Notes: generated from the sequence alone by a model not told the origin. 64,000 nt of DNA from Escherichia coli (GCF_024502345.1 NZ_JALDNN010000001.1); one strand, 5' to 3'; numbered from the stretch's first letter, positions 6,949-62,555 are shown. Program-made: numbers and translations.

Positions 6949-7917
<969 letters not shown>

Positions 7918-7974
7918 CGGAAATCCGAAGGAAAATTCCGGCTTCCTATTGAAGACAAAGTGCGCGTTGTTTAT

Positions 7975-8071: not shown

Positions 8072-8108
8072 TGTTTTCCGTTTGTCATCAGTCTTCTTCG
8101 CTATCCTG

Positions 8109-10130
8109 TTACGATGCCGCGATAAACAGCTCACGCAGCTGATGCAACTGGTCACGAATTTGCGCCGCTTCTTCGAACTCCAGATTCTGCGCGTGTTGCA
8201 TCATCAACCCTTCCAGCTCATGGATTTTCTGCTGCAACGCTTTAGGCGACATATCCATCGGCACATTATCCGGCTCAACAATCGGGCGCGATTTTCCTCT
8301 GCCCTTCGCTTTGGTTTTGGCAATGTTCTGCCCCAGCGCCAGGATATCGACCACTTTCTTGTTCAAGCCTTGCGGCGTAATGCCGTGTTCCTCGTTGTAC
8401 TTCTGCTGTTTCTCACGGCGACGTTCGGTTTCGCCAATCGCTTTCGCCATTGATGGGGTGATCTTATCGCCGTAGAGAATCGCTTTACCGTTAACGTTAC
8501 GTGCCGCACGACCAATGGTCTGGATCAACGAACGTTCGGAACGCAGGAAGCCTTCTTTGTCAGCGTCGAGGATCGCCACCAGCGACACTTCCGGCATATC
8601 CAGACCTTCGCGCAGTAAGTTGATCCCTACCAGCACGTCGAACTCACCCAGACGCAAGTCGCGGATAATCTCCATACGTTCGACGGTGTCGATATCTGAG
8701 TGAAGATAACGCACGCGCTCGCCATGTTCTTCGAGATATTCGGTAAGATCTTCCGCCATCCGCTTGGTCAGTGTGGTGACCAGTACGCGTTCGTTAATTG
8801 CCGCTCGCTGACGAATCTCCGAAAGAAGATCATCAACCTGTGTCGCCACCGGCCGCACTTCGATAATCGGGTCAAGCAATCCGGTTGGACGCACCACCTG
8901 ATCCACCACATCGCCGCCGGATTTTTCCAGCTCATAATTACCCGGCGTCGCCGAAACATAGATGGTTTGCGGCGCTAATGCTTCGAACTCTTCAAACTTA
9001 AGCGGACGGTTATCCAGCGCTGATGGCAGGCGGAAGCCGTACTCCACCAGTGTCTCTTTACGCGCCCGGTCACCGCGATACATGCCGCCAATTTGTGGAA
9101 TGGTGACGTGAGATTCATCGACCACCAGCAGCCCATCAGCAGGGAGGTAATCAAACAGCGTCGGCGGTGGCTCACCCGGTCCACGACCGGAGAGGAAGCG
9201 CGAGTAGTTTTCAATCCCCGAACAGTAGCCCAGCTCGTTCATCATCTCCAGATCAAACTGGGTACGCTGGGTCAGCCGCTGCTCTTCCAGCAGTTTGTTG
9301 TTTTCCAACAGCACTTTGCGTCTGGCGGCCAGCTCTTCTTTGATCTCCTCCATCGCCTGTACGATGCGCTCGCGCGGTGTGACGTAGTGCGTTTTCGGGT
9401 AGATGGTAAAACGTGGAATAGTGGAAACAATCTGCCCGGTCAGCGGGTCAAATAACGACAATCGTTCCACTTCCTCGTCAAACAGTTCCACGCGAAGTGC
9501 AATGTCATCCGATTCTGCCGGGAAGATATCTATCACCTCGCCACGAACGCGGAAAGTACCACGCTGGAATGCTTGATCATTACGAGCGTATTGCAGCTCC
9601 GCCAGTCGGCGCAGAATCGCGCGCTGATCGATAATCATACCGACCGTGAGATGGAGCATCATCTTGAGATATAAATCAGGATCGCCCAGACCATAAATCG
9701 CGGAAACAGACGCCACCACAACCACATCACGCCGCTCCAGCATCGCTTTGGTGGCGGATAAACGCATCTGCTCAATATGTTCGTTAACCGAGGCATCTTT
9801 CTCAATGAAAGTGTCGGAACTCGGTACATAGGCTTCCGGCTGATAGTAGTCGTAGTAGGAGACGAAATACTCCACCGCGTTTTCCGGGAAGAACTCTTTC
9901 ATTTCGCCATACAGCTGGGCCGCCAGCGTTTTGTTGGGCGCAAGTACCATGGTTGGGCGCTGAAGGTCAGCAATGACATTGGCAATGGTGAAGGTTTTCC
10001 CTGAGCCAGTCACGCCAAGTAACGTCTGGTGCGCCAGGCCATCTTCCAGCCCCTCTTCGAGACGTCGAATCGCCTCTGGCTGATCGCCAGAAGGTTTAAA
10101 AGCGGAATTCAGTTTGAACGGTTTACTCAT
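8109..10130 (-). CDS. uvrB: Excinuclease ABC subunit B
   Basis: 673 aa; Walker A GSGKT and helicase motifs; matches remembered UvrB. Confidence 0.97.
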
Positions 10131-10204
10131 GAGTCGCTACCTGAAGGAGTTGGGCGGGCAGGTATGTAATTTTACTCGTCGTACTTAATTATGCCAACAA
10201 ATTA

Positions 10205-10224
10205 TACTGGATAAAAAAACAGTT
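10205..10224 (-). promoter_or_regulatory. LexA operator (SOS box) of uvrB
   Basis: tactggataaaaaaacagtt = CTG-N10-CAG palindrome about 75 bp upstream of uvrB start. Confidence 0.8.
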
Positions 10225-10708
10225 CATCACCATAATATTTCTGATACAGCGTAAACTCCGCTGTCAATCATGAGCAAAATTTACTCTGTGGCGAGATAAA
10301 ACTCCGGCCTTACCGGGTTATCCCCAAAGCAACGGCTTTTTTAACATTTGTCAAGATGAGTGATGACAGTTTTATGGCAAGAGATGCCTGTTCAGTGACT
10401 GCCATTGCATTTATCTAACCAGTTAAAAAATAAAAGATATTTCTTTGAGCCGTCTTTAACGCCAATTCGCGTGCAAGCCGCGTATTCTCTCGCTTGCCTC
10501 GTGTTTTCTAACTCTAATACACATGGTTATCCACAGGAATAGTGGATAACTGTCTCCAGCCCCTATCCCCCGCCGCCTGGGCAATTCCCACATTCGCCGC
10601 ATGAGGCGGAAGTAAAATTTTTTTCGTGATTATTTTAGAATTTAATTGGTTAAATTGCAGTCAATCGAAGACGCGATCTCGCTCGCAATTTAACCAAATA
10701 CAGGATGG

Positions 10709-11386
10709 CTACAACAAGGCAAGGTTTATGTACTTTCCGGTTGCCGCATTTTCTGGATTTTCTGCAAGCCAGGGGATCTCTCCCAGCAGCGGCGCGGGAA
10801 TCATGCGGGTGAGCGTGGTTATATATTCAGCGTGACGTTTTCCAGGAGGCGTGACATCATTCGCCACCCAACCCGCCAGCGTCAGTCCGGCGTGTTGTAT
10901 TGCCTGTGCAGTCAACATCGCGTGATTAATACAGCCGAGTTTCACGCCAACCACCAGTATTACCGGCAGTTGTTCCTGTGTTACCCAATCCGCAAAAGTG
11001 AAAGTGTCAGAAAGGGGCGTAAACCAGCCGCCAGCGCCTTCCACTAACACCCAGTCAGCCTGTTGTTCAAGCGCGCGTAATCCGGAGCTCATTACCGATG
11101 ATTCTATCGGCCTGCCCTCTTGCGCGCTGATGATGTGCGGTGAGGTGGGTTCTGCGAAGGTGTAAGGATTTACTGTTGCGTAATCCAGCTGCAGGCTGCT
11201 GTTGCGCTGTAACGCCAGCGCGTCGCTATTGCGTAAACCTTCCGGGGTCTTTTCGCTGCCAGAGGCGACCGGTTTATAACCTGCCGTCCGGTAGCCTGCT
11301 GCCTTTGCGGCTTGTAAAAGTGCACAACTGGCGACAGTTTTCCCCACTTCGGTATCCGTTCCGGTGACAAAATAACGTTTACTCAC
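10709..11386 (-). CDS. bioD: Dethiobiotin synthetase
   Basis: 225 aa with GTG start ([18 protein letters not shown]-loop); ORF track begins 2 codons upstream at TTG. Confidence 0.93.
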
Positions 11387-12134
11387 GAGCAATCACTCCC
11401 AAAAAAAGATGATACGTCAGAGGATATCGCCCCTGCTGTTGCGGCCAGGCCAGTTGCAATCGCTGCAACTGCGAACGCGTTAATATTCGCGGGTCGCGCC
11501 CTTCATGAAGATGCGTGGCACCGATGCCTTTCAGCGAACGCATGGCACTGAGCGCATCATCAAACCACAGCGTGATGGGCTGAATATGATGTTGATAATG
11601 CACGCCGTTCAGCGACTGTTCGATTTCATCTGGCGGTAAAAAGCGATTAGCATGCGGACGCTCGTCCACCGCCTGCCACGCCTGATGCAGTTCGGGTAAG
11701 GATCCCTGCACCAGCGTGGTAAACGCGACCACGCCTTTGGGGCGCACCACCCGATACAGCTCGCGGAGTGCCGTGGATAAATTACCGCACCACTGCACTG
11801 CGAGATTGCTCCATGCAAGATCGAACGTCGCAGTCGCTAACGGCAGGGATTCGATATCTCCCGCCAGATAATGGTCTGCGGCATCCTTCTGGCGTGCCTG
11901 AACAAGCATTGGCGGCGAGAGATCTAAGGCCGTCACCTGCGCGTGACGTTCCCGCCAGTGGCGGCTCATCCAGCCAGGTCCACAACCCGCGTCCAGTACG
12001 TGGGTGTATTTACGCTGTGGGAGCATTGCCAGTAAGACGTCAGCACTCTGGCGCTGTAGATCTGCGTGTTGCTCATAGAGTGCGGCTGCCCGACCAAATG
12101 CCGCTGCAATGGCTTGTTTATTAACCGTTGCCAT
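11379..12134 (-). CDS. bioC: Malonyl-ACP O-methyltransferase
   Basis: 251 aa from [17 protein letters not shown]; SAM-MTase motif LDAGCGPG; 8 nt overlap with bioD. Confidence 0.93.
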
Positions 12135-13275
12135 GCAGCACCTCCAGCAGACGGTCGATATCCTGCATTTCATGCGCTGCGGTTAGCGTTAAGCGCAGTC
12201 GCGCAGTACCAGCGGGTACGGTTGGCGGGCGAATCGCCGTGACCCAGCAGCCTTGCTGGCGCAGTTTTTCTGCCAGTTGTAACGCACGGCTGTTATCACC
12301 GACGATCAATGGCTGGATGGCGCTGCATGAATCAGCCAGCGTAAACGGCAAATCCTGTACTCCGGCACGAAAACGCGCAATGAGTGACACCAGTTTTTCG
12401 CGCCGTGCATCCCCCTCATCACGGCGAATGACCGCCAGTGACGCACGTAATGCCTGCGCCTGAGCGGGCGGCATACTGGTGCTGTAGATAAGGTGGCGGG
12501 CGAATTGCAGCAGATAATCCGCCACCGTACTTGAGCAAAGCACCGCAGCCCCACTGACGCCAAATCCTTTGCCAAAAGTCACTACCAGCAATTCTGGTTT
12601 TACCTTTTGCAGCCAGCAGCTGCCGCGCCCCTGCTCCCCGATAACGCCCGTGCCGTGGGCATCATCGACCATCAACCAGCCATTGTGCTGTTGCGTTACC
12701 TGCTGGATTTCCGCCAGTGGCGCACTATCGCCGTCCATGCTGAACACGCCTTCTGTCACCACCAGTTGCTGCCCCGGACAGGGGGAAGCAAGCAATCGCG
12801 CCAAATGAGTGACATCGTTATGAGCAAAACGGCGAAGCTGCGACGGGCTTAAACTGGCAGCTTCCAGCAATGAGGCATGGCTAAGCCGGTCGGCAGCAAT
12901 ACGGTCCTCTTTCGCCATCATCGCGGCAATAACTGCCTGATTAGCGGCAAAACCAGAGATAAACAGCAGTGCCCGCGAATAGCCAAGCCACTCGGCCAGC
13001 TCTTCTTCCAGTGCCTGATGCACCACGCTATAACCGCTGACGTGACCGGAGCCGCCGCTACCGATGCCAAATTGCTCCGCCCCCTGCTGCCAGGCACGGA
13101 TAATTTGCGGATGATGGCTTAAACCTAAATAATCGTTACTGGAAAAGTTCAGATACTGGCGATCATCCGCCACCAGCCAGCGTCCGGCTCCTTGCGCCAC
13201 CGGATAACGGCGACGCAGGGCATCGGCAGCACGCCGCGCATCGAGCGCCGCGTTGATTTTCTCCTGCCAGCTCAT
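12121..13275 (-). CDS. bioF: 8-amino-7-oxononanoate synthase
   Basis: 384 aa PLP-dependent acyltransferase; overlaps bioC and bioB. Confidence 0.95.
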
Positions 13276-14312
13276 AATGCTGCCGCGTTGTAATATTCGT
13301 CGGTGTCCGGGGTCATCAGCGCCTGTTCAAGACGTTGCTGTTGTTCGTTATCCCCTGCCAGCACGGCAGTTTGCTGCGGATTTAGCCCCAGTTTGCGGAA
13401 CAGTTGCAGGTCTTTATCTTCTTCCGGATTCGGCGTGGTCAGCAGTTTGCAACCGTAGAAAATCGAGTTTGCGCCTGCCATAAAGCACATCGCCTGAGTC
13501 TGTTCGTTCATCTGCTCGCGTCCGGCAGAAAGGCGCACGTAAGAGGTTGGCATCATGATCCGCGCGACCGCAATGGTGCGAATAAAATCAAAGGCATCGA
13601 CATCATCGTTATCGGCAAGCGGCGTGCCTTTCACCTTCACTAGCATGTTGATTGGCACGCTTTCCGGCGGCGTCGGCAGGTTTGCCAGTTGCAGCAATAA
13701 TCCGGCGCGATCTTTTACCGTTTCGCCTAAGCCCACAATGCCGCCAGAACAGACTTTGATCCCGGCATCGCGCACTTTTTCCAGCGTATCGAGGCGTTCC
13801 TGATAAGTGCGGGTGGTGATGATATTGCCGTAAAACTCCGGCGAGGTGTCCAGGTTGTGGTTGTAGTAATCCAGCCCGGCGTTCGCGAGGCGCTGCGCCT
13901 GAGATTCACTCAACGTGCCCAGCGTCATACACGCCTCCAGCCCTAAATCTTTTACCCCCTGCACCATCTGCTCCAGGTACGGCATATCGCGTTCGTTGGG
14001 ATTCTTCCACGCCGCGCCCATGCAAAAACGCGTCGATCCCGCCGCTTTCGCTTTGCGCGCCGACTCCAGCACCTGTTCAACTTCCATCAACCGCTCGGCT
14101 TCCAGCCCGGTTTTATAGCGCGAGCTTTGCGGGCAATATTTGCAATCTTCCGGACAAGCTCCGGTCTTAATCGACAGCAACGTGCTGACCTGGACCTGAC
14201 GAGGATCAAAATGCTGGCGATGGACCTGCTGCGCTTCAAACAGCAGATCCAGCAACGGTTTTTCAAATAATTCTGTGACTTGCGACAAGGTCCAGCGTGG
14301 GCGGTGAGCCAT
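13272..14312 (-). CDS. bioB: Biotin synthase (radical SAM)
   Basis: 346 aa; [10 protein letters not shown] radical-SAM motif. Confidence 0.95.
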
Positions 14313-14356
14313 GGGGCTTCTCCAAAACGTGTTTTTTGTTGTTAATTCGGTGTAGA

Positions 14357-14392
14357 CTTGTAAACCTAAATCTTTTCAATTTGGTTTACAAG
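14357..14392. promoter_or_regulatory. bioO: bio operator (BirA binding site) between divergent bioB and bioA
   Basis: Near-perfect palindrome cttgtaaacc-taaatcttttcaattt-ggtttacaag. Confidence 0.85.
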
Positions 14393-14398
14393 TCGATT

Positions 14399-15688
14399 AT
14401 GACAACGGACGATCTTGCCTTTGACCAACGCCATATCTGGCACCCATACACATCCATGACCTCCCCGCTGCCGGTTTATCCGGTGGTGAGCGCCGAAGGT
14501 TGCGAGCTGATTTTGTCTGACGGCAGACGCCTGGTTGACGGAATGTCGTCCTGGTGGGCGGCGATCCACGGCTACAATCACCCGCAGCTTAATGCGGCGA
14601 TGAAGTCGCAAATTGATGCCATGTCGCATGTGATGTTTGGCGGTATCACCCATGCGCCAGCCATTGAGCTGTGCCGCAAACTGGTGGCGATGACGCCGCA
14701 ACCGCTGGAGTGCGTTTTTCTCGCGGACTCCGGTTCCGTAGCGGTGGAAGTGGCGATGAAAATGGCGTTGCAGTACTGGCAAGCCAAAGGCGAAGCGCGC
14801 CAGCGTTTTCTGACCTTCCGCAATGGTTATCATGGCGATACCTTTGGCGCGATGTCGGTGTGCGATCCGGACAACTCAATGCACAGCCTGTGGAAAGGCT
14901 ATCTGCCAGAAAACTTGTTTGCTCCCGCCCCACAAAGCCGTATGGATGGCGAATGGGATGAGCGCGATATGGTGGGCTTTGCCCGCCTGATGGCGGCGCA
15001 TCGTCATGAAATCGCGGCGGTGATCATTGAGCCGATTGTCCAGGGCGCAGGCGGGATGCGCATGTACCATCCGGAATGGTTAAAACGAATCCGCAAAATA
15101 TGCGATCGCAAAGGTATCTTGCTGATTGCCGACGAGATCGCCACTGGATTTGGTCGTACCGGGAAACTGTTTGCCTGTGAACATGCAGAAATCGCGCCGG
15201 ACATTTTGTGCCTCGGTAAAGCCTTAACCGGCGGCACAATGACCCTTTCCGCCACACTCACCACGCGCGAGGTTGCAGAAACCATCAGTAACGGTGAAGC
15301 CGGTTGCTTTATGCATGGGCCAACTTTTATGGGCAATCCGCTGGCCTGCGCGGCAGCAAACGCCAGCCTGGCGATTCTCGAATCTGGCGACTGGCAGCAA
15401 CAGGTGGCGGATATTGAAGTACAGCTGCGCGAGCAACTTGCCCCCGCCCGTGATGCCGAAATGGTTGCCGATGTGCGCGTACTGGGGGCCATTGGCGTGG
15501 TCGAAACCACTCATCCGGTGAATATGGCGGCGCTGCAAAAATTCTTTGTCGAACAGGGTGTCTGGATCCGGCCTTTTGGCAAACTGATTTACCTGATGCC
15601 GCCCTATATTATTCTCCCGCAACAGTTGCAGCGTCTGACCGCAGCGGTTAACCGCGCGGTACAGGATGAAACATTTTTTTGCCAATAA
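14399..15688 (+). CDS. bioA: Adenosylmethionine-8-amino-7-oxononanoate aminotransferase
   Basis: 429 aa from [17 protein letters not shown]; ORF-track start upstream is an alternative start inside the operator region. Confidence 0.95.
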
Positions 15689-15746
15689 CGAGAAGTCCGC
15701 GTGAGGGTTTCTGGCTACACTTTCTGCAAACAAGAAAGGAGGGTTC

Positions 15747-16223
15747 ATGAAACTCATCAGTAACGATCTGCGCGATGGCGATAAATTGCCGCATCGTCAT
15801 GTCTTTAACGGCATGGGTTACGATGGCGATAATATTTCACCGCATCTGGCGTGGGATGATGTTCCTGCGGGAACGAAAAGTTTTGTTGTCACCTGCTACG
15901 ACCCGGATGCGCCAACCGGCTCCGGCTGGTGGCACTGGGTAGTTGTTAACTTACCCGCTGATACCCGCGTATTACCGCAAGGGTTTGGCTCTGGTCTGGT
16001 AGCAATGCCAGACGGCGTTTTGCAGACGCGTACCGACTTTGGTAAAACCGGGTACGATGGCGCAGCACCGCCGAAAGGCGAAACTCATCGCTACATTTTT
16101 ACCGTTCACGCGCTGGATATAGAACGTATTGATGTCGATGAAGGTGCCAGCGGCGCGATGGTCGGGTTTAACGTTCATTTCCACTCTCTGGCAAGCGCCT
16201 CGATTACTGCGATGTTTAGTTAA
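15747..16223 (+). CDS. ybhB: PEBP-family protein YbhB
   Basis: 158 aa; CYDPDAPTGSGWWHW PEBP signature. Confidence 0.9.
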   Translation: MKLISNDLRDGDKLPHRHVFNGMGYDGDNISPHLAWDDVPAGTKSFVVTCYDPDAPTGSGWWHWVVVNLPADTRVLPQGFGSGLVAMPDGVLQTRTDFGKTGYDGAAPPKGETHRYIFTVHALDIERIDVDEGASGAMVGFNVHFHSLASASITAMFS

Positions 16224-16374
16224 TCACTCTGCCAGATGGCGCAATGCCATCTGGTATCACTTAAAGGTATTAAAAACAACTTTTTGTCTTTTTACCTTCC
16301 CGTTTCGCTCAAGTTAGTATAAAAAAGCAGGCTTCAACGGATTCATTTTTCTATTTCATAGCCCGGAGCAACCT

Positions 16375-17658
16375 GTGAACACATTTTCAGTTTCCCGTCT
16401 GGCGCTGGCATTGGCTTTTGGCGTGACGCTGACCGCCTGTAGCTCAACCCCGCCCGATCAACGTCCTTCTGATCAAACCGCGCCTGGTACCTCTTCTCGC
16501 CCGATTCTGTCGGCAAAAGAAGCGCAGAATTTCGATGCTCAACACTATTTTGCATCCCTGACACCAGGTGCTGCAGCGTGGAATCCTTCCCCGATTACCC
16601 TGCCTGCGCAACCTGACTTTGTTGTCGGCCCGGCGGGCACTCAAGGTGTAACGCATACCACGATTCAGGCGGCGGTAGATGCGGCAATTATCAAGCGTAC
16701 CAACAAGCGCCAGTATATTGCCGTGATGCCTGGTGAGTATCAGGGAACGGTATATGTCCCTGCCGCTCCGGGTGGAATTACTCTGTACGGTACAGGTGAA
16801 AAACCGATTGATGTGAAGATTGGGCTTTCCCTTGATGGTGGCATGAGCCCTGCCGACTGGCGTCACGACGTCAACCCGCGCGGCAAATATATGCCAGGTA
16901 AACCAGCGTGGTATATGTACGATAGCTGCCAGAGCAAACGCAGCGACAGTATCGGTGTTCTCTGCTCTGCGGTCTTCTGGTCACAAAACAATGGCCTGCA
17001 ACTGCAAAATCTGACCATCGAAAACACGCTGGGCGATAGCGTAGATGCAGGTAACCATCCGGCGGTGGCACTGCGTACTGATGGTGACCAGGTACAGATT
17101 AACAACGTTAACATTCTCGGTCGTCAGAACACCTTCTTTGTCACCAACAGCGGTGTGCAGAACCGTCTGGAAACGAATCGTCAGCCGCGTACGCTGGTGA
17201 CCAACAGCTACATTGAAGGGGATGTGGATATCGTTTCTGGTCGCGGCGCAGTGGTGTTCGATAACACCGAATTCCGCGTGGTGAACTCACGTACTCAGCA
17301 AGAAGCGTATGTGTTTGCACCGGCTACGCTGTCCAACATTTACTACGGTTTCCTCGCCGTAAACAGCCGTTTCAATGCTTTCGGTGATGGTGTGGCGCAA
17401 CTGGGCCGCTCGCTGGATGTTGATGCCAATACCAACGGTCAGGTGGTGATCCGTGATAGCGCCATCAACGAAGGTTTTAACACGGCTAAACCGTGGGCCG
17501 ATGCGGTGATCTCTAATCGTCCGTTTGCGGGTAATACCGGCAGCGTAGATGATAACGACGAAATACAGCGCAATCTGAATGACACTAACTACAACCGCAT
17601 GTGGGAATACAATAACCGCGGCGTGGGTAGTAAAGTGGTTGCAGAGACGAAGAAGTAA
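16375..17658 (+). CDS. ybhC: Outer-membrane lipoprotein YbhC (pectinesterase-like fold)
   Basis: 427 aa; lipobox LTAC near N-terminus. Confidence 0.9.
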   Translation: MNTFSVSRLALALAFGVTLTACSSTPPDQRPSDQTAPGTSSRPILSAKEAQNFDAQHYFASLTPGAAAWNPSPITLPAQPDFVVGPAGTQGVTHTTIQAAVDAAIIKRTNKRQYIAVMPGEYQGTVYVPAAPGGITLYGTGEKPIDVKIGLSLDGGMSPADWRHDVNPRGKYMPGKPAWYMYDSCQSKRSDSIGVLCSAVFWSQNNGLQLQNLTIENTLGDSVDAGNHPAVALRTDGDQVQINNVNILGRQNTFFVTNSGVQNRLETNRQPRTLVTNSYIEGDVDIVSGRGAVVFDNTEFRVVNSRTQQEAYVFAPATLSNIYYGFLAVNSRFNAFGDGVAQLGRSLDVDANTNGQVVIRDSAINEGFNTAKPWADAVISNRPFAGNTGSVDDNDEIQRNLNDTNYNRMWEYNNRGVGSKVVAETKK

Positions 17659-52719: not shown

Positions 52720-53664
52720 ATGAGTCCTGATAATATCGGTTCGGCTGTCAATCGCTTCTCAGGTTGGCCATCTAATGATCCTCTAAAAACAGATGAAGAA
52801 TCAATGAAATCACCCGTGACTGTGCAAGTAATAAAGATGATTGCCGCCATCCTTGACCCACATCGGATAGTCGTTGGAATTGATACACTTTATACAACGC
52901 AGCGCGAAACATTTACCTCAGAGAGTCAACAGCTCATTGAATCAGCATTGCAAACACTTCATGTGATGAATTTAAATAATCTGGAAACAAATCGCGATGA
53001 AGAAGGTCACTATCTGGCTTTTGAATATAACGTTGACACCTCTGACAGAATAACCGTTTCTGCTTATAATGAAAAAAAGCCTGGCTGCTATGGCCAATGT
53101 CTTTTAATACAGGATGACGAAACAGACTTATTTAACCTGATAAAAATTAAAATTTTCGAAGCCAGGCATAATTATGTCGCTCAATTGATGAGCGATCCGG
53201 AATTTATGTTCAAATTCAGTTATAGCGCTCAACAAAATAGATTAGAACCTCATCTTCTGGTTCCCGCTTATTTCCCTCTAAAAACAAACGAACCGGTTAC
53301 GCAAGAGGATGTACTGTTACTTTATCGTTTCTTTAAAATGAATGATGATTTTAATAAATTAACATCAGAGGAATACATGAGTATCATGACTCCTCTGATG
53401 AAGTGTGAGCGTAGCGTCCACGACAACAACAGGTATGTGACGGGCAAAGATACCCATCTTCTGGACTATCCTCCTTCTGGTAACCAGATACATTTCCATA
53501 TTTTTCCTGACGAATCAGCAACACTAGTCCTTTATTTTTCAAACAATGACCTTGAATGTTTCGTCTTTGAAAGAGATATTCCTAGCCAGTATCGCTTTTT
53601 CAAAATGTTTACCAATCTGGCACTGGTTATAGATCAGTTAACCGAAGCCAATAAAATACTTTAA
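52720..53664 (+). CDS. Hypothetical protein (314 aa), AT-rich accessory gene, no recognised domain
   Basis: Intact ORF with SD (gagg) 9 nt upstream; visibly AT-rich codon usage; no TM segment, signal peptide or P-loop; Ser/Asn/Pro-rich N-terminus. Confidence 0.6.
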   Translation: MSPDNIGSAVNRFSGWPSNDPLKTDEESMKSPVTVQVIKMIAAILDPHRIVVGIDTLYTTQRETFTSESQQLIESALQTLHVMNLNNLETNRDEEGHYLAFEYNVDTSDRITVSAYNEKKPGCYGQCLLIQDDETDLFNLIKIKIFEARHNYVAQLMSDPEFMFKFSYSAQQNRLEPHLLVPAYFPLKTNEPVTQEDVLLLYRFFKMNDDFNKLTSEEYMSIMTPLMKCERSVHDNNRYVTGKDTHLLDYPPSGNQIHFHIFPDESATLVLYFSNNDLECFVFERDIPSQYRFFKMFTNLALVIDQLTEANKIL

Positions 53665-53744
53665 TTTTCTATATATCCCTATGGCAAATATTGCTAAACA
53701 ATGCCTGGGGATTAATTTTTATTACTCACGGAAAGATTTAAATA

Positions 53745-54167
53745 ATGATACCATCTCAGATCTCTTTCAATACCCTTCCAGTCAATGCAACATACGCTTC
53801 AGAGACAACAGTTGACACACAAAAATTCTCTGACATCCTCTACTCAGCGGGGTGTTCCCTAAAGGATATGGCTTATCTGAGCAGATGTCTGGCATCAATA
53901 CACCCGACTCTCGCCAAAAACATTTATGAAACAGAAAATCTCAGCGATCAAAAATTACTGCATATTGATTGCCGTAGTACAAATGACATCAAGATAAATA
54001 TCTTTTTTGGTCAGCAACGAGAAGGATTAATTGAAATTAGTTCTGACACAGTTATTTTTTCGATACTGTCTTCATTGATTGACTCCGCCATTTCTAAATT
54101 TCAACATCAAAACCCCGTTAACGGTTCAGTTAATCCTGAACTATTGTATAAGGATTATACTGATTAA
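53745..54167 (+). CDS. Hypothetical protein (140 aa), AT-rich accessory gene, no recognised domain
   Basis: Intact ORF 80 bp downstream of the 314 aa ORF, same strand, SD-like ggaaag; Ser/Thr/Asn-rich N-terminus. Confidence 0.55.
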   Translation: MIPSQISFNTLPVNATYASETTVDTQKFSDILYSAGCSLKDMAYLSRCLASIHPTLAKNIYETENLSDQKLLHIDCRSTNDIKINIFFGQQREGLIEISSDTVIFSILSSLIDSAISKFQHQNPVNGSVNPELLYKDYTD

Positions 54168-54714: not shown

Positions 54715-55164
54715 ATGAAGAAAGCAACACTTGTGATTGGCGTTATTGGCGCGGACTGCCATGCAGTAGGCAATAAAGTTCTGGACCGCGTTTTTAGCAA
54801 CCACGACTTCAGAGTCATTAATCTGGGCGTAATGGTCAGCCAGGACGAATATATTGATGCTGCCATCGAAACTGGCGCTGACGCGATTATCGTCTCCTCT
54901 ATCTATGGGCATGGCGATATCGACTGTCTGGGCATGCGCGAACGCTGCATCGAGCGTGGACTGGGTGACATCCTCCTCTATGTGGGCGGTAACCTGGTGG
55001 TCGGAAAACATGACTTCGCTGACGTGGAAACCAAGTTCAAAGAGATGGGATTTGATCGCGTCTTTGCCCCAAGTCATGACTTAGAAGATGTTTGTCAGCT
55101 GATGGCCCACGATATCAATCAACGTCATGACGTTGATACTCGTATTCTTGAAGAGGCTATCTGA
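54715..55164 (+). CDS. glmS: Glutamate mutase sigma subunit (B12-binding)
   Basis: Cobalamin-binding DxHxxG motif ([10 protein letters not shown]); close match to remembered Clostridium GlmS/MutS; start at MKKATLVIG. Not the GlcN-6-P synthase glmS. Confidence 0.88.
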
Positions 55165-56552
55165 TGCAAATCGTCTCTGTCGATATTGGATCGACGTGGA
55201 CCAAAGCTGCCCTCTTCACCCGGGAGGGGGACGCGTTAACGTTGGTTAACCACGTACTGACCCCAACCACCACCCATCATCTGGCGAAGGGGTTTTTCTC
55301 CAGCCTGAACCAGGTGTTAAACGTAGATAATGCCCTCCCCCTGTTAAACAGCGGTGAGGTTGCATTGAAGTATTCCTCCTCTGCCAAAGGTGGGCTGGCG
55401 GTTGCCGCAATGGGATTGGTGCCTTCTATCACCCTGGAAACCGCGAAAGTAACCGCTCACTCTGCGGGGGCTAAAATTGCGCAATATTACGCCTACAAGC
55501 TGAACCGCCGTGATATCCAGGCACTGGAAGAAACGCAGCCCGATATTCTCTTGTTCACCGGCGGCACCGACGGCGGAGAAGAAAGCTACGGACTGAATAA
55601 CGCCCGTGTGCTGGCAGAATCCAAACTCGACTGCGCCATTATTTATGCCGGAAACCGGGATATTCAGGACGAGGTGCAGGAGATCCTCGGGCATAAAGAC
55701 CTGACCATCGTCGACAATGTTCTGCCCGATCTTGACCATCCGAACCCTTTAGCCGCACGCCAGGCTATTTGCGACATATTCCTTAAACGCATCGTTAAAG
55801 GGAAAGGGCTGGATGTCATTGTTGATAAAACAGGCGAAGAACCAATGCCGACACCATGGACGGTCTTTGAACTGGTCAAGGCAATCAGTAACGTCGATCA
55901 CAGCTGGAAAGAGTTCATGCTGATCGACATGGGCGGCGCAACCACCGATGTTTATTCCGCCGGTGCCAACACGCTCTCGCCCGACACCGTTTTACACGGC
56001 GTACCGGAACCCTTCGTAAAACGGACGGTGGAAGGCGATCTGGGAATGCGCGTCTCGGCAGTGGTGGTTGGTGAAAGTGCGAAAGAGTTAGTCAATGTGA
56101 ATTTTGCTCAGCAACCCGCACAGCTGGACGCTTTTTATCATTACCTCCGTCATCTAGTCGCTCATCCCGACTACTTACCCGCAAATGCAGAAGAGAAATA
56201 TTTCGATACCGTCCTGGCCGGACTGTGTGTGGGTTATGCCACCGAAAGACATGCGGGCACCAAAAAAGAGGTCTGCACCTGCGTCGGCAATGTCGATTTA
56301 CAGATGGGACGTGACCTGACAACCGTGCGTAAAGTCGTCGGATCCGGCGGATGGCTCTCGCGTGCCAGTCAGTTCGATATGCATCACTGGTTGAAATACC
56401 GCGAGTTAAACGACGACGGTAAACGCATTCTCTTACCGACCGAATTTGAATATTACCGCGATTCCCGGGGGCTATTACCACTGCTGGCAAACGTCGCCAG
56501 AGTCGATCCGCTGGCCGCCGCGCGCACCAGTATTCAATGCTTAACCCTATAA
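55164..56552 (+). CDS. glmL: Glutamate mutase-associated protein GlmL/MutL (actin-like ATPase fold)
   Basis: 462 aa; N-terminal VDIGSTWTKAALF phosphate-1 motif; sits between S and E subunit genes; ATGA overlap with glmS. Confidence 0.8.
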   Translation: MQIVSVDIGSTWTKAALFTREGDALTLVNHVLTPTTTHHLAKGFFSSLNQVLNVDNALPLLNSGEVALKYSSSAKGGLAVAAMGLVPSITLETAKVTAHSAGAKIAQYYAYKLNRRDIQALEETQPDILLFTGGTDGGEESYGLNNARVLAESKLDCAIIYAGNRDIQDEVQEILGHKDLTIVDNVLPDLDHPNPLAARQAICDIFLKRIVKGKGLDVIVDKTGEEPMPTPWTVFELVKAISNVDHSWKEFMLIDMGGATTDVYSAGANTLSPDTVLHGVPEPFVKRTVEGDLGMRVSAVVVGESAKELVNVNFAQQPAQLDAFYHYLRHLVAHPDYLPANAEEKYFDTVLAGLCVGYATERHAGTKKEVCTCVGNVDLQMGRDLTTVRKVVGSGGWLSRASQFDMHHWLKYRELNDDGKRILLPTEFEYYRDSRGLLPLLANVARVDPLAAARTSIQCLTL

Positions 56553-56570: not shown

Positions 56571-58016
56571 ATGGAACTTCGAAATAAGAAATTAACCCAT
56601 GACGAATTCATGACCGAGCGGCAACAGGTACTGAAAACCTGGGAAACCGGCAAGGATGTTGAAAACTTTGAAGATGGCGTTAAATACCAACAAAACATTC
56701 CTGAGCATAAACGCTTCTCTCATGCCCTGCTGAAAGCAGACAAGGAAGGTAAAACCCTTAGCCAACCGCGCGCAGGTGTGGCGCTGATGGACGAACACAT
56801 CGAACTGCTGAAAACACTACAAGAAGAGTGCGATCTGCTGCCAAGCACCATCGATGCATATACCCGTCTGAATCGGTACGAAGAAGCGGCTGTAGGGATT
56901 AAAAAATCCATCGAAGCCGGAACCTCTAAACTGAACGGTTTACCGGTAGTTAACCATGGTGTCGCAGCTTGCCGTCGCCTCACCGAAACCCTGCAAAAAC
57001 CGCTACAGATCCGCCACGGCACGCCAGATGCGCGTCTGCTGGCTGAAATCTCAATGGCCAGCGGCTTTACCAGTTATGAAGGCGGTGGCATTTCCTACAA
57101 CATTCCGTATGCCAAACGTGTAACGCTGGAAAAATCGATCCGCGACTGGCAGTACTGCGACCGTTTAATGGGGATGTACGAAGAACACGGGATCCGCATC
57201 AACCGCGAACCGTTTGGCCCACTAACGGGTACGCTGATCCCGCCGTTTATCTCGCACTCTATCGCGATAATCGAAGGCTTGCTGGCGCTGGAACAGGGTG
57301 TGAAATCTATCACCGTTGGTTATGGCCAGGTCGGCAGCCTGACGCAGGATGTTGCGGCGATCCAGTCTCTGCGTGAACTTGCACACGAATACTTTCAGAG
57401 CTATGGCTATACCGACTATGAATTAAGTACCGTGTTTCACCAGTGGATGGGCGGCTTTCCGGAAGACGAATCGAAAGCGTTCGCTATTATCTCCTGGGGC
57501 GCAGCCGTCGCGGGGATGTCTGGTGCCACCAAACTCATCACCAAAAGTCCGCACGAAGCCTGGGGCATTCCGACTGCCGCTGCCAACATTCAGGGGCTGA
57601 AAGCCTCCCGCCAGATGCTCAACATGGTCAATGAGCAGAAATTCCCGCCGTGCCCTGCGGTTGAACTGGAAATTGAACTGATTAAGAGCGAGGTTCGCGC
57701 AGTACTGAATAAAGTGTTCGAACTGGGTAATGGTGATATTGCGCGCGGAACGGTGCTGGCATTTGAAGCGGGCGTACTGGATGTGCCGTTTGCGCCAGCC
57801 GCCTGCAACGCGGGCAAAATTCTTCCGGTCCGTGACAACACCGGCGCGATACGCGTACTGGAAGCCGGAGCCGTTCCATTGCCAAAAGATATTCTCGACC
57901 TCCACCACGATTACGTTGCGGAACGCGCACGCTGTGAAGGACGCCAACCGACATTCCAGATGGTTGTAGATGACATCAATGCTGTATCCCACAGTAAATT
58001 AATAGGAAGACCATAA
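56571..58016 (+). CDS. glmE: Glutamate mutase epsilon (catalytic) subunit
   Basis: 481 aa; extensive identity to remembered Clostridium GlmE (LPSTIDAYTR, HGTPD, VFHQWMGGFP, KTPHEA). Confidence 0.9.
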   Translation: MELRNKKLTHDEFMTERQQVLKTWETGKDVENFEDGVKYQQNIPEHKRFSHALLKADKEGKTLSQPRAGVALMDEHIELLKTLQEECDLLPSTIDAYTRLNRYEEAAVGIKKSIEAGTSKLNGLPVVNHGVAACRRLTETLQKPLQIRHGTPDARLLAEISMASGFTSYEGGGISYNIPYAKRVTLEKSIRDWQYCDRLMGMYEEHGIRINREPFGPLTGTLIPPFISHSIAIIEGLLALEQGVKSITVGYGQVGSLTQDVAAIQSLRELAHEYFQSYGYTDYELSTVFHQWMGGFPEDESKAFAIISWGAAVAGMSGATKLITKSPHEAWGIPTAAANIQGLKASRQMLNMVNEQKFPPCPAVELEIELIKSEVRAVLNKVFELGNGDIARGTVLAFEAGVLDVPFAPAACNAGKILPVRDNTGAIRVLEAGAVPLPKDILDLHHDYVAERARCEGRQPTFQMVVDDINAVSHSKLIGRP

Positions 58017-59257
58017 TGAAAATAAAACAGGCCCTGTTCACCGCTGGCTATTCCTCATTCTATTTCGATGACCAGCAGGCGATAAAAAACGGAGCGGGTC
58101 ATGACGGCTTTTTTTATACCGGGGAGCCGGTAACACAGGGGTTTAACGCCGTTCGTCAGGCCGGGGAGTGCGTATCGGTACAGTTGATTCTGGAAAACGG
58201 CGCGGTCGCCGTAGGTGACTGTACTGCCGTACAGTATTCCGGGGCAGGCGGTCGCGATCCACTGTTCCTCGCAGAGCACTTTATTCCGTTCCTCAACGAC
58301 CATATCAAGCCATTACTGGTAGGCCGCGATGTGGATGCTTTCCTGCCGAATGCCCGTTTCTTCGACAAATTGCGTATTGACGGCAACTTGCTGCATACCG
58401 CCGTGCGCTACGGATTATCACAGGCGCTGCTTGATGCTACCGCGCTGGCAACCGGCCGTCTGAAAACTGAAGTGGTCTGTGATGAATGGCAGTTGCCACG
58501 CGTGGCGGAATCCATTCCATTATTTGGTCAGAGCGGCGACGATCGATATATCGCCGTCGATAAGATGATCCTTAAAGGCATCGACGTGCTGCCCCATGCG
58601 CTGATTAATAACGTCGAAGAGAAGCTGGGCTTTAAAGGTGAAAAACTGCGCGAATATGTCCACTGGCTGTCGGATCGCATTCTGAGCAAGCGCACCAGCG
58701 CACGCTACCACCCAACCCTGCACATCGATGTATACGGCACTATCGGTCTGATCTTCGATATGGATCCGCTTCGCTGTGCGCAATACATCGCCAGCCTGGA
58801 AAAAGAAGCGCAAGGCCTGCCGCTCTACATCGAAGGGCCGGTCGATGCCGGTAACAAGCCCGATCAAATTCGCCTGCTGACCGCGATTACCAAAGAGCTG
58901 ACGCGCCTCGGTTCCGGCGTGAAAATTGTGGCCGATGAATGGTGTAACACCTACCAGGATATTGTTGATTTCACTGATGCTGCCAGTTGTCACATGGTGC
59001 AAATCAAAACCCCGGATCTGGGCAGTATTCACAACATCGTCGATGCGGTTCTTTACTGCAACAGCCACAGCATGGAAGCGTACCAGGGCGGCACCTGCAA
59101 TGAAACTGATGTCAGTGCCCGCACCTGTGTCCACGTCGCCCTTGCCGCTCGCCCTATGCGTATGCTGGTAAAACCAGGGATGGGCTTTGACGAAGGCCTC
59201 GATATCGTCTTCAACGAAATGAATCGTACTATCGCGCTGTTGCAGGCTAAGGATTAA
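58016..59257 (+). CDS. mal: 3-methylaspartate ammonia-lyase
   Basis: 413 aa; enolase-superfamily; strong identity to remembered Clostridium MAL (GAGHDGF, VQYSGAGGRDPLFLA, HMVQIKTPDLG); ATGA overlap with glmE. Confidence 0.92.
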   Translation: MKIKQALFTAGYSSFYFDDQQAIKNGAGHDGFFYTGEPVTQGFNAVRQAGECVSVQLILENGAVAVGDCTAVQYSGAGGRDPLFLAEHFIPFLNDHIKPLLVGRDVDAFLPNARFFDKLRIDGNLLHTAVRYGLSQALLDATALATGRLKTEVVCDEWQLPRVAESIPLFGQSGDDRYIAVDKMILKGIDVLPHALINNVEEKLGFKGEKLREYVHWLSDRILSKRTSARYHPTLHIDVYGTIGLIFDMDPLRCAQYIASLEKEAQGLPLYIEGPVDAGNKPDQIRLLTAITKELTRLGSGVKIVADEWCNTYQDIVDFTDAASCHMVQIKTPDLGSIHNIVDAVLYCNSHSMEAYQGGTCNETDVSARTCVHVALAARPMRMLVKPGMGFDEGLDIVFNEMNRTIALLQAKD

Positions 59258-59260
59258 CAA

Positions 59261-60631
59261 ATGGCTCGTTCTTTTAAAGTCTTATCGCCAACGGCAATCC
59301 TCGGGTATGGATTCCCGGAAGAGAGCTTCCGCAAAGCGATGGCAGAATCGCCCGATCTGATCGCCGTTGATGCAGGCTCTTCCGATCCAGGCCCCCACTA
59401 CCTCGGGGCAGGCAAACCGTTTACCGATCGCGCAGGGGTCAAGCGCGATCTGCGCTATATGATCACCGCAGGCGTGCAAAATAATATACCGGTGGTGATC
59501 GGAACGGCTGGCGGTTCTGGTGCCGCACCACACCTGGAGTGGTGCCGAGAAATAATTCATGAGATTGCCCGGGAAGAGCACCTCTCGTTCTCGATGGCGC
59601 TGATCCCGGCAGACGTTGACAAAGCCATCGTCCACCAGGCGCTGGATAACGGCAAAATCACGGCGCTGGAGTTTGTCCCGCCGTTAACCCACGACGCGAT
59701 TGACGAAAGTACGTATATCGTCGCGCAAATGGGCATCGAACCCTTCCAGCGTGCGCTAAAAGAAGGCGCGCAAGTGGTGCTGGGTGGGCGCGCTTACGAC
59801 CCGGCCTGCTTTGCTGCGCTACCGATCATGCAAGGCTTTGATGAAGGTCTGGCGCTGCATTGTGGGAAAATCCTTGAGTGCGCAGCAATCGCCGCAACGC
59901 CCGGCTCAGGCTCTGACTGTGCGATGGGCATCATTGATGACAACGGCTTTACGCTGAAGACATTTAATCCGAAGCGTAAATTTACCGAAACGTCAGCAGC
60001 TGCACACACACTGTATGAGAAATCCGATCCTTACTTCCTGCCAGGACCTGGCGGCGTGTTGAATCTGAAAGGCTGCACATTTAAAGCGGTCAATAACGGC
60101 GAAGTGTACGTCAGCGGTTCTAAGCATGAAGAAACGCCGTATGCCCTGAAACTGGAAGGTGCACGACGGGTGGGCTTCCGCTGTCTGACCATCGCCGGAA
60201 CGCGCGACCCGATTATGATCGCCGGGATCGATAAAATCATCGATGAAGTCAAAACCAGCGTTTCGCGTAACCTGTCGCTCGACGATGACAGCATTCGCAT
60301 CAATTTCCACCTGTACGGCAAAAACGGGGTGATGGGAGACCATGAACCGATGCAAACTGCCGGGCATGAGCTGGGGATTGTCCTTGATGTAGTTGCACCG
60401 ACCCAGGAAATTGCCAACAGCGTTTGCTCGCTGGTGCGCTCTACCATGCTGCACTACGGCTATGAAAACCGCATCGCTACCGCAGGCAATCTGGCGTTCC
60501 CGTTCTCCCCTTCTGATATCCAGGGCGGGCCGGTATACGAATTTTCCATATATCACCTGATTGAAGCCAACGACGCTCTGCGTTTTGATTTCCATATTGA
60601 ACAGGTGACGCCAGAAGGAGTTCAGGCATGA
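59261..60631 (+). CDS. DUF1446 (AtuA N-terminal domain-like) protein of unknown function
   Basis: 456 aa ORF 4 nt after mal; family assignment from memory, not searched. Confidence 0.7.
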   Translation: MARSFKVLSPTAILGYGFPEESFRKAMAESPDLIAVDAGSSDPGPHYLGAGKPFTDRAGVKRDLRYMITAGVQNNIPVVIGTAGGSGAAPHLEWCREIIHEIAREEHLSFSMALIPADVDKAIVHQALDNGKITALEFVPPLTHDAIDESTYIVAQMGIEPFQRALKEGAQVVLGGRAYDPACFAALPIMQGFDEGLALHCGKILECAAIAATPGSGSDCAMGIIDDNGFTLKTFNPKRKFTETSAAAHTLYEKSDPYFLPGPGGVLNLKGCTFKAVNNGEVYVSGSKHEETPYALKLEGARRVGFRCLTIAGTRDPIMIAGIDKIIDEVKTSVSRNLSLDDDSIRINFHLYGKNGVMGDHEPMQTAGHELGIVLDVVAPTQEIANSVCSLVRSTMLHYGYENRIATAGNLAFPFSPSDIQGGPVYEFSIYHLIEANDALRFDFHIEQVTPEGVQA

Positions 60632-60945
60632 AACAGTCAATTGTCTCACTGGCGCAAGTCATTCGTTCGAAAAATGCCGGACCTTACGAACTGGTTTTAG
60701 ATATTTTATTTAAAACGAAAGAAAACTATGAGCGAGTTAAATCATCAGGGCAATTAACCCCAGAACTGATTGCGCGCTTATATCATGTTGAACCTGACTT
60801 TATTCATCGTATTGTCTGGTTTGATCCTTCTAACGCAGTAAAAATCGTCATGCCACGAGATATTATCTCCGGGAATGTAGGTGACAATGATGTCTATGGT
60901 GCACAGCAACATGCACCTTTATTAAATATGAGTTTCGATTTGTAA
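60628..60945 (+). CDS. DUF4387 (AtuA C-terminal domain-like) small protein
   Basis: 105 aa ORF overlapping preceding ORF by 4 nt (ATGA); family assignment from memory. Confidence 0.65.
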   Translation: MKQSIVSLAQVIRSKNAGPYELVLDILFKTKENYERVKSSGQLTPELIARLYHVEPDFIHRIVWFDPSNAVKIVMPRDIISGNVGDNDVYGAQQHAPLLNMSFDL

Positions 60946-61028
60946 AAATCCGAATACTTTTAGCCAACTGACATCCCGTCACTTATTACAGTTCAACACT
61001 TCAGCTATTTGTAAGGTTGTAATAGCAG

Positions 61029-61060
61029 GTAGATGCCTGAATCTCTATTCAGGCATCTAC
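61029..61060 (+). terminator. Inverted repeat / possible attenuator between DUF4387 gene and transporter gene
   Basis: gtagatgcctgaatctctattcaggcatctac perfect 14 bp stem; no clean U-tract. Confidence 0.4.
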
Positions 61061-61084
61061 TTCTCCTGATTCTGATTTATCGCC

Positions 61085-61378
61085 GTGCACCTGATGGAGG
61101 AAAAAATGAAGAAAATAAGTTTAACCACGATGATTCTTTTGGCGCTGGTACTTGGAATGATTATCGGCGTAGTGCTCAATAACACTGTTTCACCGGAAAC
61201 AGCAAAACTCTATGCGCAAGAAATATCGATATTCACGACGATTTTCTTACGACTGATAAAAATGATTATCGCTCCGTTAGTGGTCTCTACCCTGGTGGTA
61301 GGTATTGCTAAAATGGGAGATGCCAAAGCCCTTGGTCGTATTTTTTCTAAAACACTCTTTTTATTTATTTGCGCCTCA
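61085..61378 (+). pseudogene. 5' fragment (98 codons) of a DAACS-family (GltP/DctA-like) dicarboxylate/amino acid:cation symporter gene, truncated by IS1
   Basis: [30 protein letters not shown] matches the GltP N-terminal signature; reading frame runs into IS1 and stops after 8 IS1-encoded codons. Confidence 0.85.
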
Positions 61379-61433
61379 GGTGATGCTGCCAACTTACTGA
61401 TTTAGTGTATGATGGTGTTTTTGAGGTGCTCCA

Positions 61434-61709
61434 GTGGCTTCTGTTTCTATCAGCTGTCCCTCCTGTTCAGCTACTGACGGGGTGGTGCGTAACGGCAAAA
61501 GCACCGCCGGACATCAGCGCTATCTCTGCTCTCACTGCCGTAAAACATGGCAACTGCAGTTCACTTACACCGCTTCTCAACCCGGTACGCACCAGAAAAT
61601 CATTGATATGGCCATGAATGGCGTTGGATGCCGGGCAACCGCCCGCATTATGGGCGTTGGCCTCAACACGATTTTCCGCCATTTAAAAAACTCAGGCCGC
61701 AGTCGGTAA
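61434..61709 (+). CDS. insA: IS1 protein InsA
   Basis: 91 aa; zinc-finger CPSC..CSHC; matches remembered InsA. Confidence 0.95.
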
Positions 61710-62131
61710 CCTCGCGCATACAGCCGGGCAGTGACGTCATCGTCTGCGCGGAAATGGACGAACAGTGGGGATACGTCGGGGCTAAATCGCGCCAGCGCTG
61801 GCTGTTTTACGCGTATGACAGGCTCCGGAAGACGGTTGTTGCGCACGTATTCGGTGAACGCACTATGGCGACGCTGGGGCGTCTTATGAGCCTGCTGTCA
61901 CCCTTTGACGTGGTGATATGGATGACGGATGGCTGGCCGCTGTATGAATCCCGCCTGAAGGGAAAGCTGCACGTAATCAGCAAGCGATATACGCAGCGAA
62001 TTGAGCGGCATAACCTGAATCTGAGGCAGCACCTGGCACGGCTGGGACGGAAGTCGCTGTCGTTCTCAAAATCGGTGGAGCTGCATGACAAAGTCATCGG
62101 GCATTATCTGAACATAAAACACTATCAATAA
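61628..62131 (+). CDS. insB: IS1 transposase InsB (expressed as InsAB' by -1 frameshift)
   Basis: 167 aa ORF in -1 frame relative to insA. Confidence 0.93.
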
Positions 62132-62146
62132 GTTGGAGTCATTACC

Positions 62147-62555
62147 AATCGCCGTTATTAGCTAAAGAATGAATATTAACAATAATATCGGGATGTAACT
62201 TTGTGAATTCATGTAAATTTGGGATTAACCAGTGGGTACTAAAAGTAGGATTAACGGCAAGTTCAATAACCTGAACCGTAGGCTGCCAGGTCATAATGGT
62301 ATTGGTATCGCGTTCCAGCTTATTTAATGTTTCTTTTACTATCCCCAGGTAATACTTCCCTGCATCATTAAGAAAAATGCGTTTTTTAGAGTGTGAAAAT
62401 AACGGAGTACGTAAAAATTCCTCCAGCGCACTTACTTGTCTGAATACTGCACTTTGGGTTAACGCTAACTCCTCTGCCGCTCTGGTATAACTTTCATGAC
62501 GTGCGACGACCTCAAAAGTCACCAGCAGTTCCGTTTTAGGTATTTTCCCTCGCAT
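62147..62555 (-). pseudogene. LysR-family regulator, 3'-truncated by IS1 (only about 135 N-terminal codons remain)
   Basis: LysR HTH (TFEVVARHESYTRAAEELALTQSAVFRQVSALE); last codon and stop are supplied by the IS1 end. Confidence 0.85.

Follow-up and report, generated by a model that had tools for sequence, protein, structure and literature searches.

What is the function of the two genes that follow the methylaspartate ammonia-lyase gene, mal, in the glutamate-fermentation island of Escherichia coli? The question is raised here by a 64,000-nucleotide stretch of E. coli DNA (GCF_024502345.1, NZ_JALDNN010000001.1), which is referred to in full as the window and from whose first letter all coordinates are counted. 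Within it, cmlA (59261..60631, + strand, 456 amino acids) and cmlB (60628..60945, + strand, 105 amino acids) form the 3' end of a 6.5-kb cluster, glmS-glmL-glmE-mal-cmlA-cmlB. An earlier note on this DNA placed the two proteins in the route from glutamate via methylaspartate to mesaconate, possibly in the handling of citramalate, and this view agrees with what was found: the pair matches a citramalate lyase of known structure. We consider it highly probable that the product of cmlA and cmlB is a heteromeric (S)-citramalate lyase, with CmlA as the large and CmlB as the small subunit, and that this enzyme requires neither coenzyme A (CoA) nor an acyl carrier protein (ACP).

The disposal of (S)-citramalate in E. 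coli O157:H7, and in enterobacteria that have glutamate mutase, methylaspartase and FumD, has been a puzzle since 2015. In that year, Kronen and Berg described how enterobacteria with glmSLE and mal also have FumD, a mesaconase (PMC4682846). No citramalate lyase activity and no detectable classical enzyme were found in E. coli O157:H7, neither citramalate lyase nor citramalyl-CoA lyase was detectable in E. coli, and the fate of (S)-citramalate was left open (PMC4682846). The presence of a DUF1446 gene 3' of mal in the Enterobacteriaceae and Dictyoglomus was remarked upon in the same study (PMC4682846). CmlAB fills the pathway step that these authors could not find in O157:H7, because it combines identity to a named citramalate lyase with in vivo use of that enzyme and linkage to mal. 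The pair would thereby close the route from glutamate to pyruvate, acetate and ammonia without CoA or a lyase of the ACP type.

Relationship to a crystallised citramalate lyase

The CmlA of the window can be aligned with chain A of PDB entries 9ERQ and 9EVF across residues 1-456 of both proteins, with 420 of 456 positions identical (92.1%; phmmer E = 8e-292), and CmlB shares 88 of 104 residues (84.6%; E = 5e-57) with chain B of the same entries. These chains were named by their depositors as 'Citramalate lyase, subunit A (cmlA)' and 'subunit B (cmlB)'. Entry 9EVF is the 'Citramalate lyase - ADP - pyruvate complex', released on 2025-10-08, and 9ERQ is the 'Citramalate lyase - AMPPNP - citramalate complex', released on 2025-10-22. 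The two entries document a heteromer of 456- and 105-residue subunits whose ligands are citramalate, pyruvate and an adenine nucleotide. The Raoultella/Klebsiella enzyme has the same two-gene architecture and subunit lengths as the E. coli pair, is likewise encoded after mal in the enterobacterial glutamate-fermentation island, and has a fold equal to that predicted for the E. coli proteins (TM 0.97). The two loci differ in that, in the window, an IS1 element has taken out the island's downstream half.

Conservation within the family was assessed from 44 conserved columns in an alignment of 55 CmlA sequences and from 31 columns, conserved at 90% or above, in an alignment of 66 CmlB sequences. 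Relative to the PDB chains, CmlA carries 36 substitutions and CmlB 16, all of them outside these columns. The invariant residues D42, R177, D180, E206 and E299 of CmlA are all retained, as are its glycine-rich loops DAGSSDPGP and GTAGGSG, and the family-invariant residues kept in the two subunits are putative active-site and nucleotide-loop positions.

For catalytic activity we rely on the work of others, namely the PDB names, the ligand complexes and the in vivo use of the enzyme in a preprint of January 2026, where the cmlAB genes of Raoultella were employed as a CoA-independent citramalate lyase (bioRxiv 10.64898/2026.01.16.699985). The construct provided each subunit with its own ribosome-binding site, and the growth of an acetyl-CoA-auxotrophic E. 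coli on mesaconate depended on the cmlAB plasmid (bioRxiv 10.64898/2026.01.16.699985). Isotope labelling revealed that mesaconate carbon reaches acetyl-CoA, and cmlAB together with host FumA was enough to sustain this carbon flow in E. coli (bioRxiv 10.64898/2026.01.16.699985). The suggestion in the earlier note that such a role would be a new function for the domain pair has therefore been overtaken: the functional novelty is pre-empted by the structures of October 2025, to which CmlA and CmlB are 92% and 85% identical, and by the January 2026 preprint, and the gene linkage had been remarked upon in 2015 (PMC4682846).

Organisation and conservation of the gene pair

The mal and cmlA genes are separated by only 3 nucleotides (nt) (CAA, 59258-59260), one fewer than the earlier note had counted, and cmlA and cmlB overlap by 4 nt at an ATGA, as that note had described along with the two open reading frames (ORFs) themselves. 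The Shine-Dalgarno-like motifs AAGGA and GAAGGAG are found 7-8 nt 5' of the cmlA and cmlB starts. On sequence evidence, cmlA and cmlB are real genes rather than chance ORFs, because they have thousands of homologues (55-99% identity, in many phyla) and because the tight junctions are conserved. The family assignment of the earlier note was borne out by a Pfam scan: CmlA gives a weak, partial match to AtuA (DUF1446), PF07287 (E = 5.7e-19, 68.6 bits, residues 63-393), and CmlB matches DUF4387, PF14330 (E = 2.9e-39). The two domains do occur fused elsewhere, in proteins of 608 and 621 amino acids that carry both PF07287 and PF14330, and those closest to CmlA are fungal.

Scanning of species-representative genomes for CmlA relatives yielded 597 or more. 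The counts given here refer to the best 80 loci, at 55-99% identity, and those for mal to the 74 of them that have at least 1.4 kb of upstream sequence. The 80 loci span the Enterobacterales, Rhodocyclales, Riflebacteria, Aminicenantes, Spirochaetes, Lentisphaerae, Deltaproteobacteria and several Firmicutes. The cmlB gene is located directly 3' of cmlA in every one of the 80, with the 4-nt overlap in 41 and a gap of no more than 30 nt in 74. The mal gene was detected in 67 of 74 loci, or in 68 if a copy truncated by the contig end downstream in locus L077 is included, leaving 6 without it. It stands immediately upstream of cmlA on the same strand in 65 of the 74, and the 67 include one locus (L076) where it is placed downstream of cmlB; the gap between mal and cmlA is 30 nt or less in 67 of 72 loci. 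The three genes glmS, glmE and mal are found together in 57 of the 65 loci with enough flank, and the order glmS-glmL-glmE-mal-cmlA-cmlB is that of the window and of most of the 80 loci. The present comparison demonstrates that the pair is orthologous to the crystallised enzyme, that its A and B genes are obligately paired, and that their place directly after mal is conserved. Among complete E. coli genomes, the cluster is carried at 95-99% identity by 1,135 of 5,426 (about 21%).

Clustering of the surrounding ORFs identified a recurrent set of neighbours, consisting of class I fumarase (38 loci), a DAACS symporter (26), a GntR-type regulator (21), CobO (19), glutaminase A (18) and, in enterobacteria, a LysR-type regulator (17). 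In locus L064, which has no mal, a two-subunit class I fumarase still adjoins cmlAB. A similar arrangement, again without mal, is seen in the P0122 locus (L084:7001-14596), from a metagenome-assembled genome (MAG) of the Bacillota. There, an operon under an AraC regulator combines a cmlAB pair of 55% identity with genes for a two-subunit class I fumarase, an M20 peptidase, an Amidohydro_3 enzyme and the transporter DcuC. The P0122 locus may feed citramalate or malate by another route; loci that lack mal and have a fumarase beside cmlAB fit the arrival of citramalate from another source. Pairs of 57-68% identity are also found without nearby glm, mal or fumarase genes in Shewanella (L055, L066 and L069), Desulfospira (L057) and Accumulibacter (L030), and in Shewanella cmlAB sits between hrpA and an M4 metalloprotease gene. 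Relatives at 44-50% identity, sampled by hand and too few for statistics, stand in unrelated contexts in which no linkage to mal was seen. The expectation that the domain pair would keep to the neighbourhood of glm and mal is thus upheld for the orthologous clade and fails for the wider family, which is equally found elsewhere.

A further ORF of about 310 codons, with a Walker A motif (GVIGSEGSGKST), is present in 34 non-enterobacterial loci (for example L053:1965-2897, L026:9857-10780 and L065:11796-12725). It is found directly 3' of cmlB in most of these and just 5' of glmS in L058, L060 and L078. Searches of Pfam, NCBIfam and the PDB gave no relative of its product beyond the P-loop itself. 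The ORF, which E. coli lacks, specifies an uncharacterised NTPase linked with the glm-mal-cmlAB cluster.

Proposed pathway and mechanism

The four genes upstream of cmlA provide the early steps of the route. The gene for subunit S of methylaspartate (glutamate) mutase, glmS (54715..55164, + strand), was identified by the NCBIfam equivalog models NF002612 and TIGR01501 (E = 5e-76) and by the RefSeq annotation of the same locus; its longest ORF begins at 54652, and 54715 is the RefSeq-type start. It is followed by an intact glmL (55164..56552, + strand), for the mutase accessory/reactivating protein (NCBIfam NF040745, 508.9 bits against a cut-off of 475), by glmE (56571..58016, + strand), for mutase subunit E (TIGR01503 equivalog, 864 bits), and by an intact mal (58016..59257, + strand; TIGR01502 equivalog, 542.7 bits). 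The scores of GlmS, GlmL, GlmE and Mal all exceed the curated cut-offs of their equivalog models. The glmS/glmL and glmE/mal junctions are 1-nt overlaps, and glmL and glmE lie 18 nt apart. The gene order and tight junctions described previously are indeed present. Each of the six ORFs, glmS through cmlB, has its full length.

In the proposed pathway, glutamate would be converted into (2S,3S)-3-methylaspartate by the B12-dependent GlmSE mutase, with GlmL in its accessory/reactivating role, and Mal would then release ammonia from 3-methylaspartate to generate mesaconate. The hydration of mesaconate to (S)-citramalate would be mediated by FumD, or by FumA and FumB where fumD is missing, as in the window. 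Finally, CmlAB would cleave (S)-citramalate into pyruvate and a C2 unit (acetate). Since FumA and FumB are able to hydrate mesaconate (PMC4682846), the chemistry of the pathway is still possible in the window strain.

The crystal ligands suggest that ATP is probably a co-substrate that is consumed in turnover, because the non-hydrolysable AMPPNP trapped citramalate, and ADP accompanies pyruvate. The most economical chemistry would involve phosphorylation of the C4 carboxylate of citramalate to an acyl phosphate, which would make a retro-aldol cleavage of the C-C bond feasible and lead to the release of acetyl phosphate. Acetate kinase or phosphotransacetylase could then turn acetyl phosphate into acetate and ATP or into acetyl-CoA. 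An acyl phosphate is proposed because the direct release of acetate needs stabilisation of an acetate enolate, for which the classical lyases use an acyl-thioester on an ACP. We regard the acyl phosphate and the release of acetyl phosphate as a tentative proposal, held at slightly less than even confidence. In one fungal contig (L082, SDIL01000071.1), some 7 kb separate the gene for a fused 608-residue AtuA-DUF4387 protein from one for acetate kinase, which is rare in fungi; this proximity may fit an acetyl phosphate product, and as a single case it may also be coincidence.

Several points weigh against the account given above. A search of the literature found no primary biochemical paper on CmlAB dealing with kinetics, stoichiometry or the role of ATP, and returned only the study of Kronen and Berg, a Prevotella transcriptome table that lists mal beside AtuA-family genes, and the 2026 preprint. 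The exact sequence of PDB chain A is recorded under Klebsiella michiganensis, and its assignment to Raoultella planticola, and with it to the Raoultella enzyme of the preprint, is tentative. With respect to the product, the preprint refers to acetate instead of acetyl phosphate, and the strains evolved in that work up-regulate Acs (bioRxiv 10.64898/2026.01.16.699985), which fits free acetate as the product; neither ack nor pta is among the recurrent neighbour families of the 80 cmlAB loci. In the window itself, the island has suffered disruption of fumD, the transporter and the regulator.

Comparison with AtuA and with citramalate-cleaving systems

We know of no biochemical demonstration of an activity for AtuA, the protein of acyclic terpene utilisation in which the two domains are fused. 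The statement in the earlier note that its biochemical function is unknown is true only in part; it has been proposed that acetate is released from the -C(OH)-CH2-COO- arm of a tertiary alcohol (PMC4847356). AtuA and CmlAB share their Pfam families and this proposed logic of acetate release, and plausibly they share the chemistry as well, that is, the removal of acetate from a tertiary 3-hydroxy acid. The differences are equally clear. AtuA consists of one polypeptide of about 600 amino acids (615 in T. linaloolentis) that acts on a CoA ester and is encoded in the atu operon, whereas CmlAB is split, would act on a free dicarboxylate and is placed after mal.

The classical citramalate/citrate lyase, of the CitDEF type found in Clostridium tetanomorphum, also carries out the net conversion of (S)-citramalate into pyruvate and acetate, and at the same point of the methylaspartate pathway (PMC4682846). 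In that system the acetyl group is held as a thioester on the prosthetic group of an ACP, and activation needs CitC, CitX and CitG. In contrast, CmlAB has two subunits and no ACP, binds an adenine nucleotide, and is unrelated in sequence and fold; Pfam and NCBIfam give no homology of CmlA or CmlB to CitD (the ACP), CitE or CitF. A third solution, the (S)-citramalyl-CoA lyase route, employs a succinyl-CoA:citramalate CoA-transferase and Ccl to take the same carbon skeleton to pyruvate and a C2 unit. This route requires activation with CoA, and its genes are missing from most enterobacteria (PMC4682846), whereas the Cml route is described as CoA-independent (bioRxiv 10.64898/2026.01.16.699985). 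Carboxylate kinases of the amino-acid-kinase fold (aspartokinase, N-acetylglutamate kinase and carbamate kinase) were also considered in the comparison.

State of the island in the window strain

In intact strains, cmlB is followed by a DAACS symporter gene, fumD and cobO, and then by a divergent LysR gene. In the window, only a 5' remnant of the symporter gene is present (61085..61378, + strand, about 98 codons), which belongs to the dicarboxylate/amino acid:cation type and matches NCBIfam GltP/DctA at the N-terminus only. It is truncated by an IS1 element of 768 bp (61379..62146, + strand), which was recognised from its insA/insB-type ORFs and from IS1 annotations under the match, and whose left end at 61379 reads GGTGATGCTGCC. 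Beyond IS1 there is a divergent remnant of about 136 codons (62147..62555, - strand, within an ORF at 62142-62555) that encodes the N-terminal, helix-turn-helix (HTH) part of the LysR-type regulator.

The extent of the loss can be read from the O145:H28 strain RM12761 (locus L001), with which collinearity ends at 61378 and in which the intact LysR gene encodes 301 amino acids. IS1 stands in place of 3,910 bp (alignment break from L001 18777 to 22688), and the deletion has removed fumD (mesaconase/fumarase), cobO, most of the symporter gene and the 3' half of the LysR gene. The two IS1 junctions are found together in no complete E. coli genome of the collection. Some E. coli have an IS1 at the symporter site and keep fumD, and others have the IS1-LysR junction. 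In RM12761 itself, glmL (12565-13952) and mal (15416-16656) are frameshifted pseudogenes in an otherwise intact island, and the parts of the pathway that are being lost seem to vary among E. coli lineages. Regulation and uptake have probably been lost in the window strain, and its island is probably poorly expressed or silent, with the enzymes themselves intact.

Alternative explanations

It could be argued that CmlAB is not a catalyst at all but serves Mal or glutamate mutase as a chaperone or as a factor for maturation or protection; an enzyme-protecting or enzyme-maturing role had been raised in the earlier note. The translational coupling to mal would suit such a role, as would the small size of CmlB, whose Pfam family is not catalytic-looking, and the cluster already has one accessory protein in GlmL. 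The crystal complexes contain citramalate and pyruvate, however, and cmlAB functions in an E. coli host that has no glm or mal genes, observations that contradict protection or maturation. Pairs without mal or glm are found in Shewanella, Desulfospira, Accumulibacter and the P0122 locus, and charged residues are strongly conserved, as is typical of an active site; we consider a chaperone very improbable. An ATP-dependent kinase or ligase that activates mesaconate or citramalate, with cleavage left to another protein or occurring spontaneously, is somewhat less improbable and still decidedly unlikely. Against it, pyruvate, the product of cleavage, sits in the product complex and the depositors call the protein a lyase; moreover, cmlAB alone with host FumA suffices in E. 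coli, which itself has no detectable citramalate or citramalyl-CoA lyase. The RefSeq product name would make the pair orthologues of Pseudomonas AtuA in acyclic terpene (geranyl-CoA) catabolism, and this is the hardest of all to credit. The match to PF07287 is weak as well as partial, the conserved neighbours are glmSLE, mal and fumarase, and no atu genes for geranyl-CoA carboxylase, hydratase or acyl-CoA dehydrogenase are nearby, the surroundings in the window being cydAB, the glm-mal island and sucABCD. As judged from sequence, CmlA is a divergent member of PF07287, and CmlAB is not an AtuA orthologue because of its split architecture, its non-CoA-ester substrate and the lack of neighbouring atu genes.

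A citramalate lyase is the preferred reading of the coding sequences, and a further explanation concerns the window strain alone. The cmlAB genes may be intact and yet functionally dead cargo, the IS1 deletion having silenced or uncoupled the island. IS1 has replaced 3.9 kb including half of the LysR gene, other E. coli lineages have frameshifts in glmL and mal, and even the intact cluster of O157:H7 was without expression in any of the conditions tested (PMC4682846). On the other side, everything from glmS to cmlB is full length, with every conserved residue kept. E. coli also possesses a housekeeping adenosyltransferase. For the missing FumD, FumA and FumB can stand in (PMC4682846). We consider dead cargo a serious possibility that falls somewhat short of probable. 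As it concerns expression and not coding, it is compatible with CmlAB being a citramalate lyase.

The wider family and its annotation

DUF1446/AtuA was previously a large family without a demonstrated activity. The family to which CmlAB belongs comprises at least 2,376 clusters at 50% identity, distributed among bacteria, archaea and fungi. It is possible, if rather doubtful, that CmlAB is the first to have been solved among a very large group of related C-C lyases that use ATP and release acetyl phosphate from tertiary 3-hydroxy acids. If so, the -CH2-COO- arm of the substrate would be phosphorylated, and acetyl phosphate rather than acetate would leave, such that the last step of the enterobacterial pathway would come at no net ATP cost after the action of acetate kinase or phosphotransacetylase. 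The pairs without mal in Shewanella, Desulfospira, Accumulibacter and P0122, along with the fungal fusions, would then cleave other hydroxy acids, and the 310-residue P-loop protein of the non-enterobacterial loci might be a further component.

The present practical value of these results lies in annotation, as Pfam, NCBIfam and RefSeq names trail the structures. No NCBIfam model (June 2026) matches CmlA or CmlB. Some CmlA records are named '3-methylaspartate ammonia-lyase', the 90% cluster of CmlA includes two proteins of 413 amino acids named methylaspartate ammonia-lyase, and 'Acyl-CoA synthetase' is among the UniRef names for CmlB. The window strain can be flagged as carrying a decapitated island.

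Other features of the window

A perfect 16-bp stem-loop (61027..61062, + strand, from RNA folding) is located in the 139-nt spacer between cmlB and the symporter gene. The region 60940-61090 folds with -36.6 kcal/mol (z = -3.3), and none of 200 shuffled sequences was as stable. The stem-loop has no clean U-tract, and a terminator scan catches only part of it; it may form the 3' end of the glmS-cmlB transcript, an attenuator or an mRNA stabiliser. A promoter scan of the cluster gave fewer sigma-70-like sites than were found in shuffled sequences and is uninformative.

The island is compositionally mosaic. Its G+C content is 0.53-0.55 from glmL through cmlA and steps down at the boundary between cmlA (0.549) and cmlB (0.384), and the symporter and LysR remnants have values of about 0.39-0.40. 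Two AT-rich ORFs (G+C 0.34-0.39) lie between cydA and glmS, at 52720-53664 (314 amino acids) and 53745-54167 (140 amino acids); they match no NCBIfam family, are 'hypothetical' in RefSeq, and the stretch 52720-54167 resembles filler gained by horizontal transfer at the island's edge. Positions 1-16310 of the window are not collinear with the O145:H28 reference, in which a lambdoid prophage adjoins ybhC. From 16310 to 61378 the window is collinear with the O145:H28 backbone, through ybhC, mod, gal, aroG, nadA, a tRNA cluster, tol-pal and cyd.

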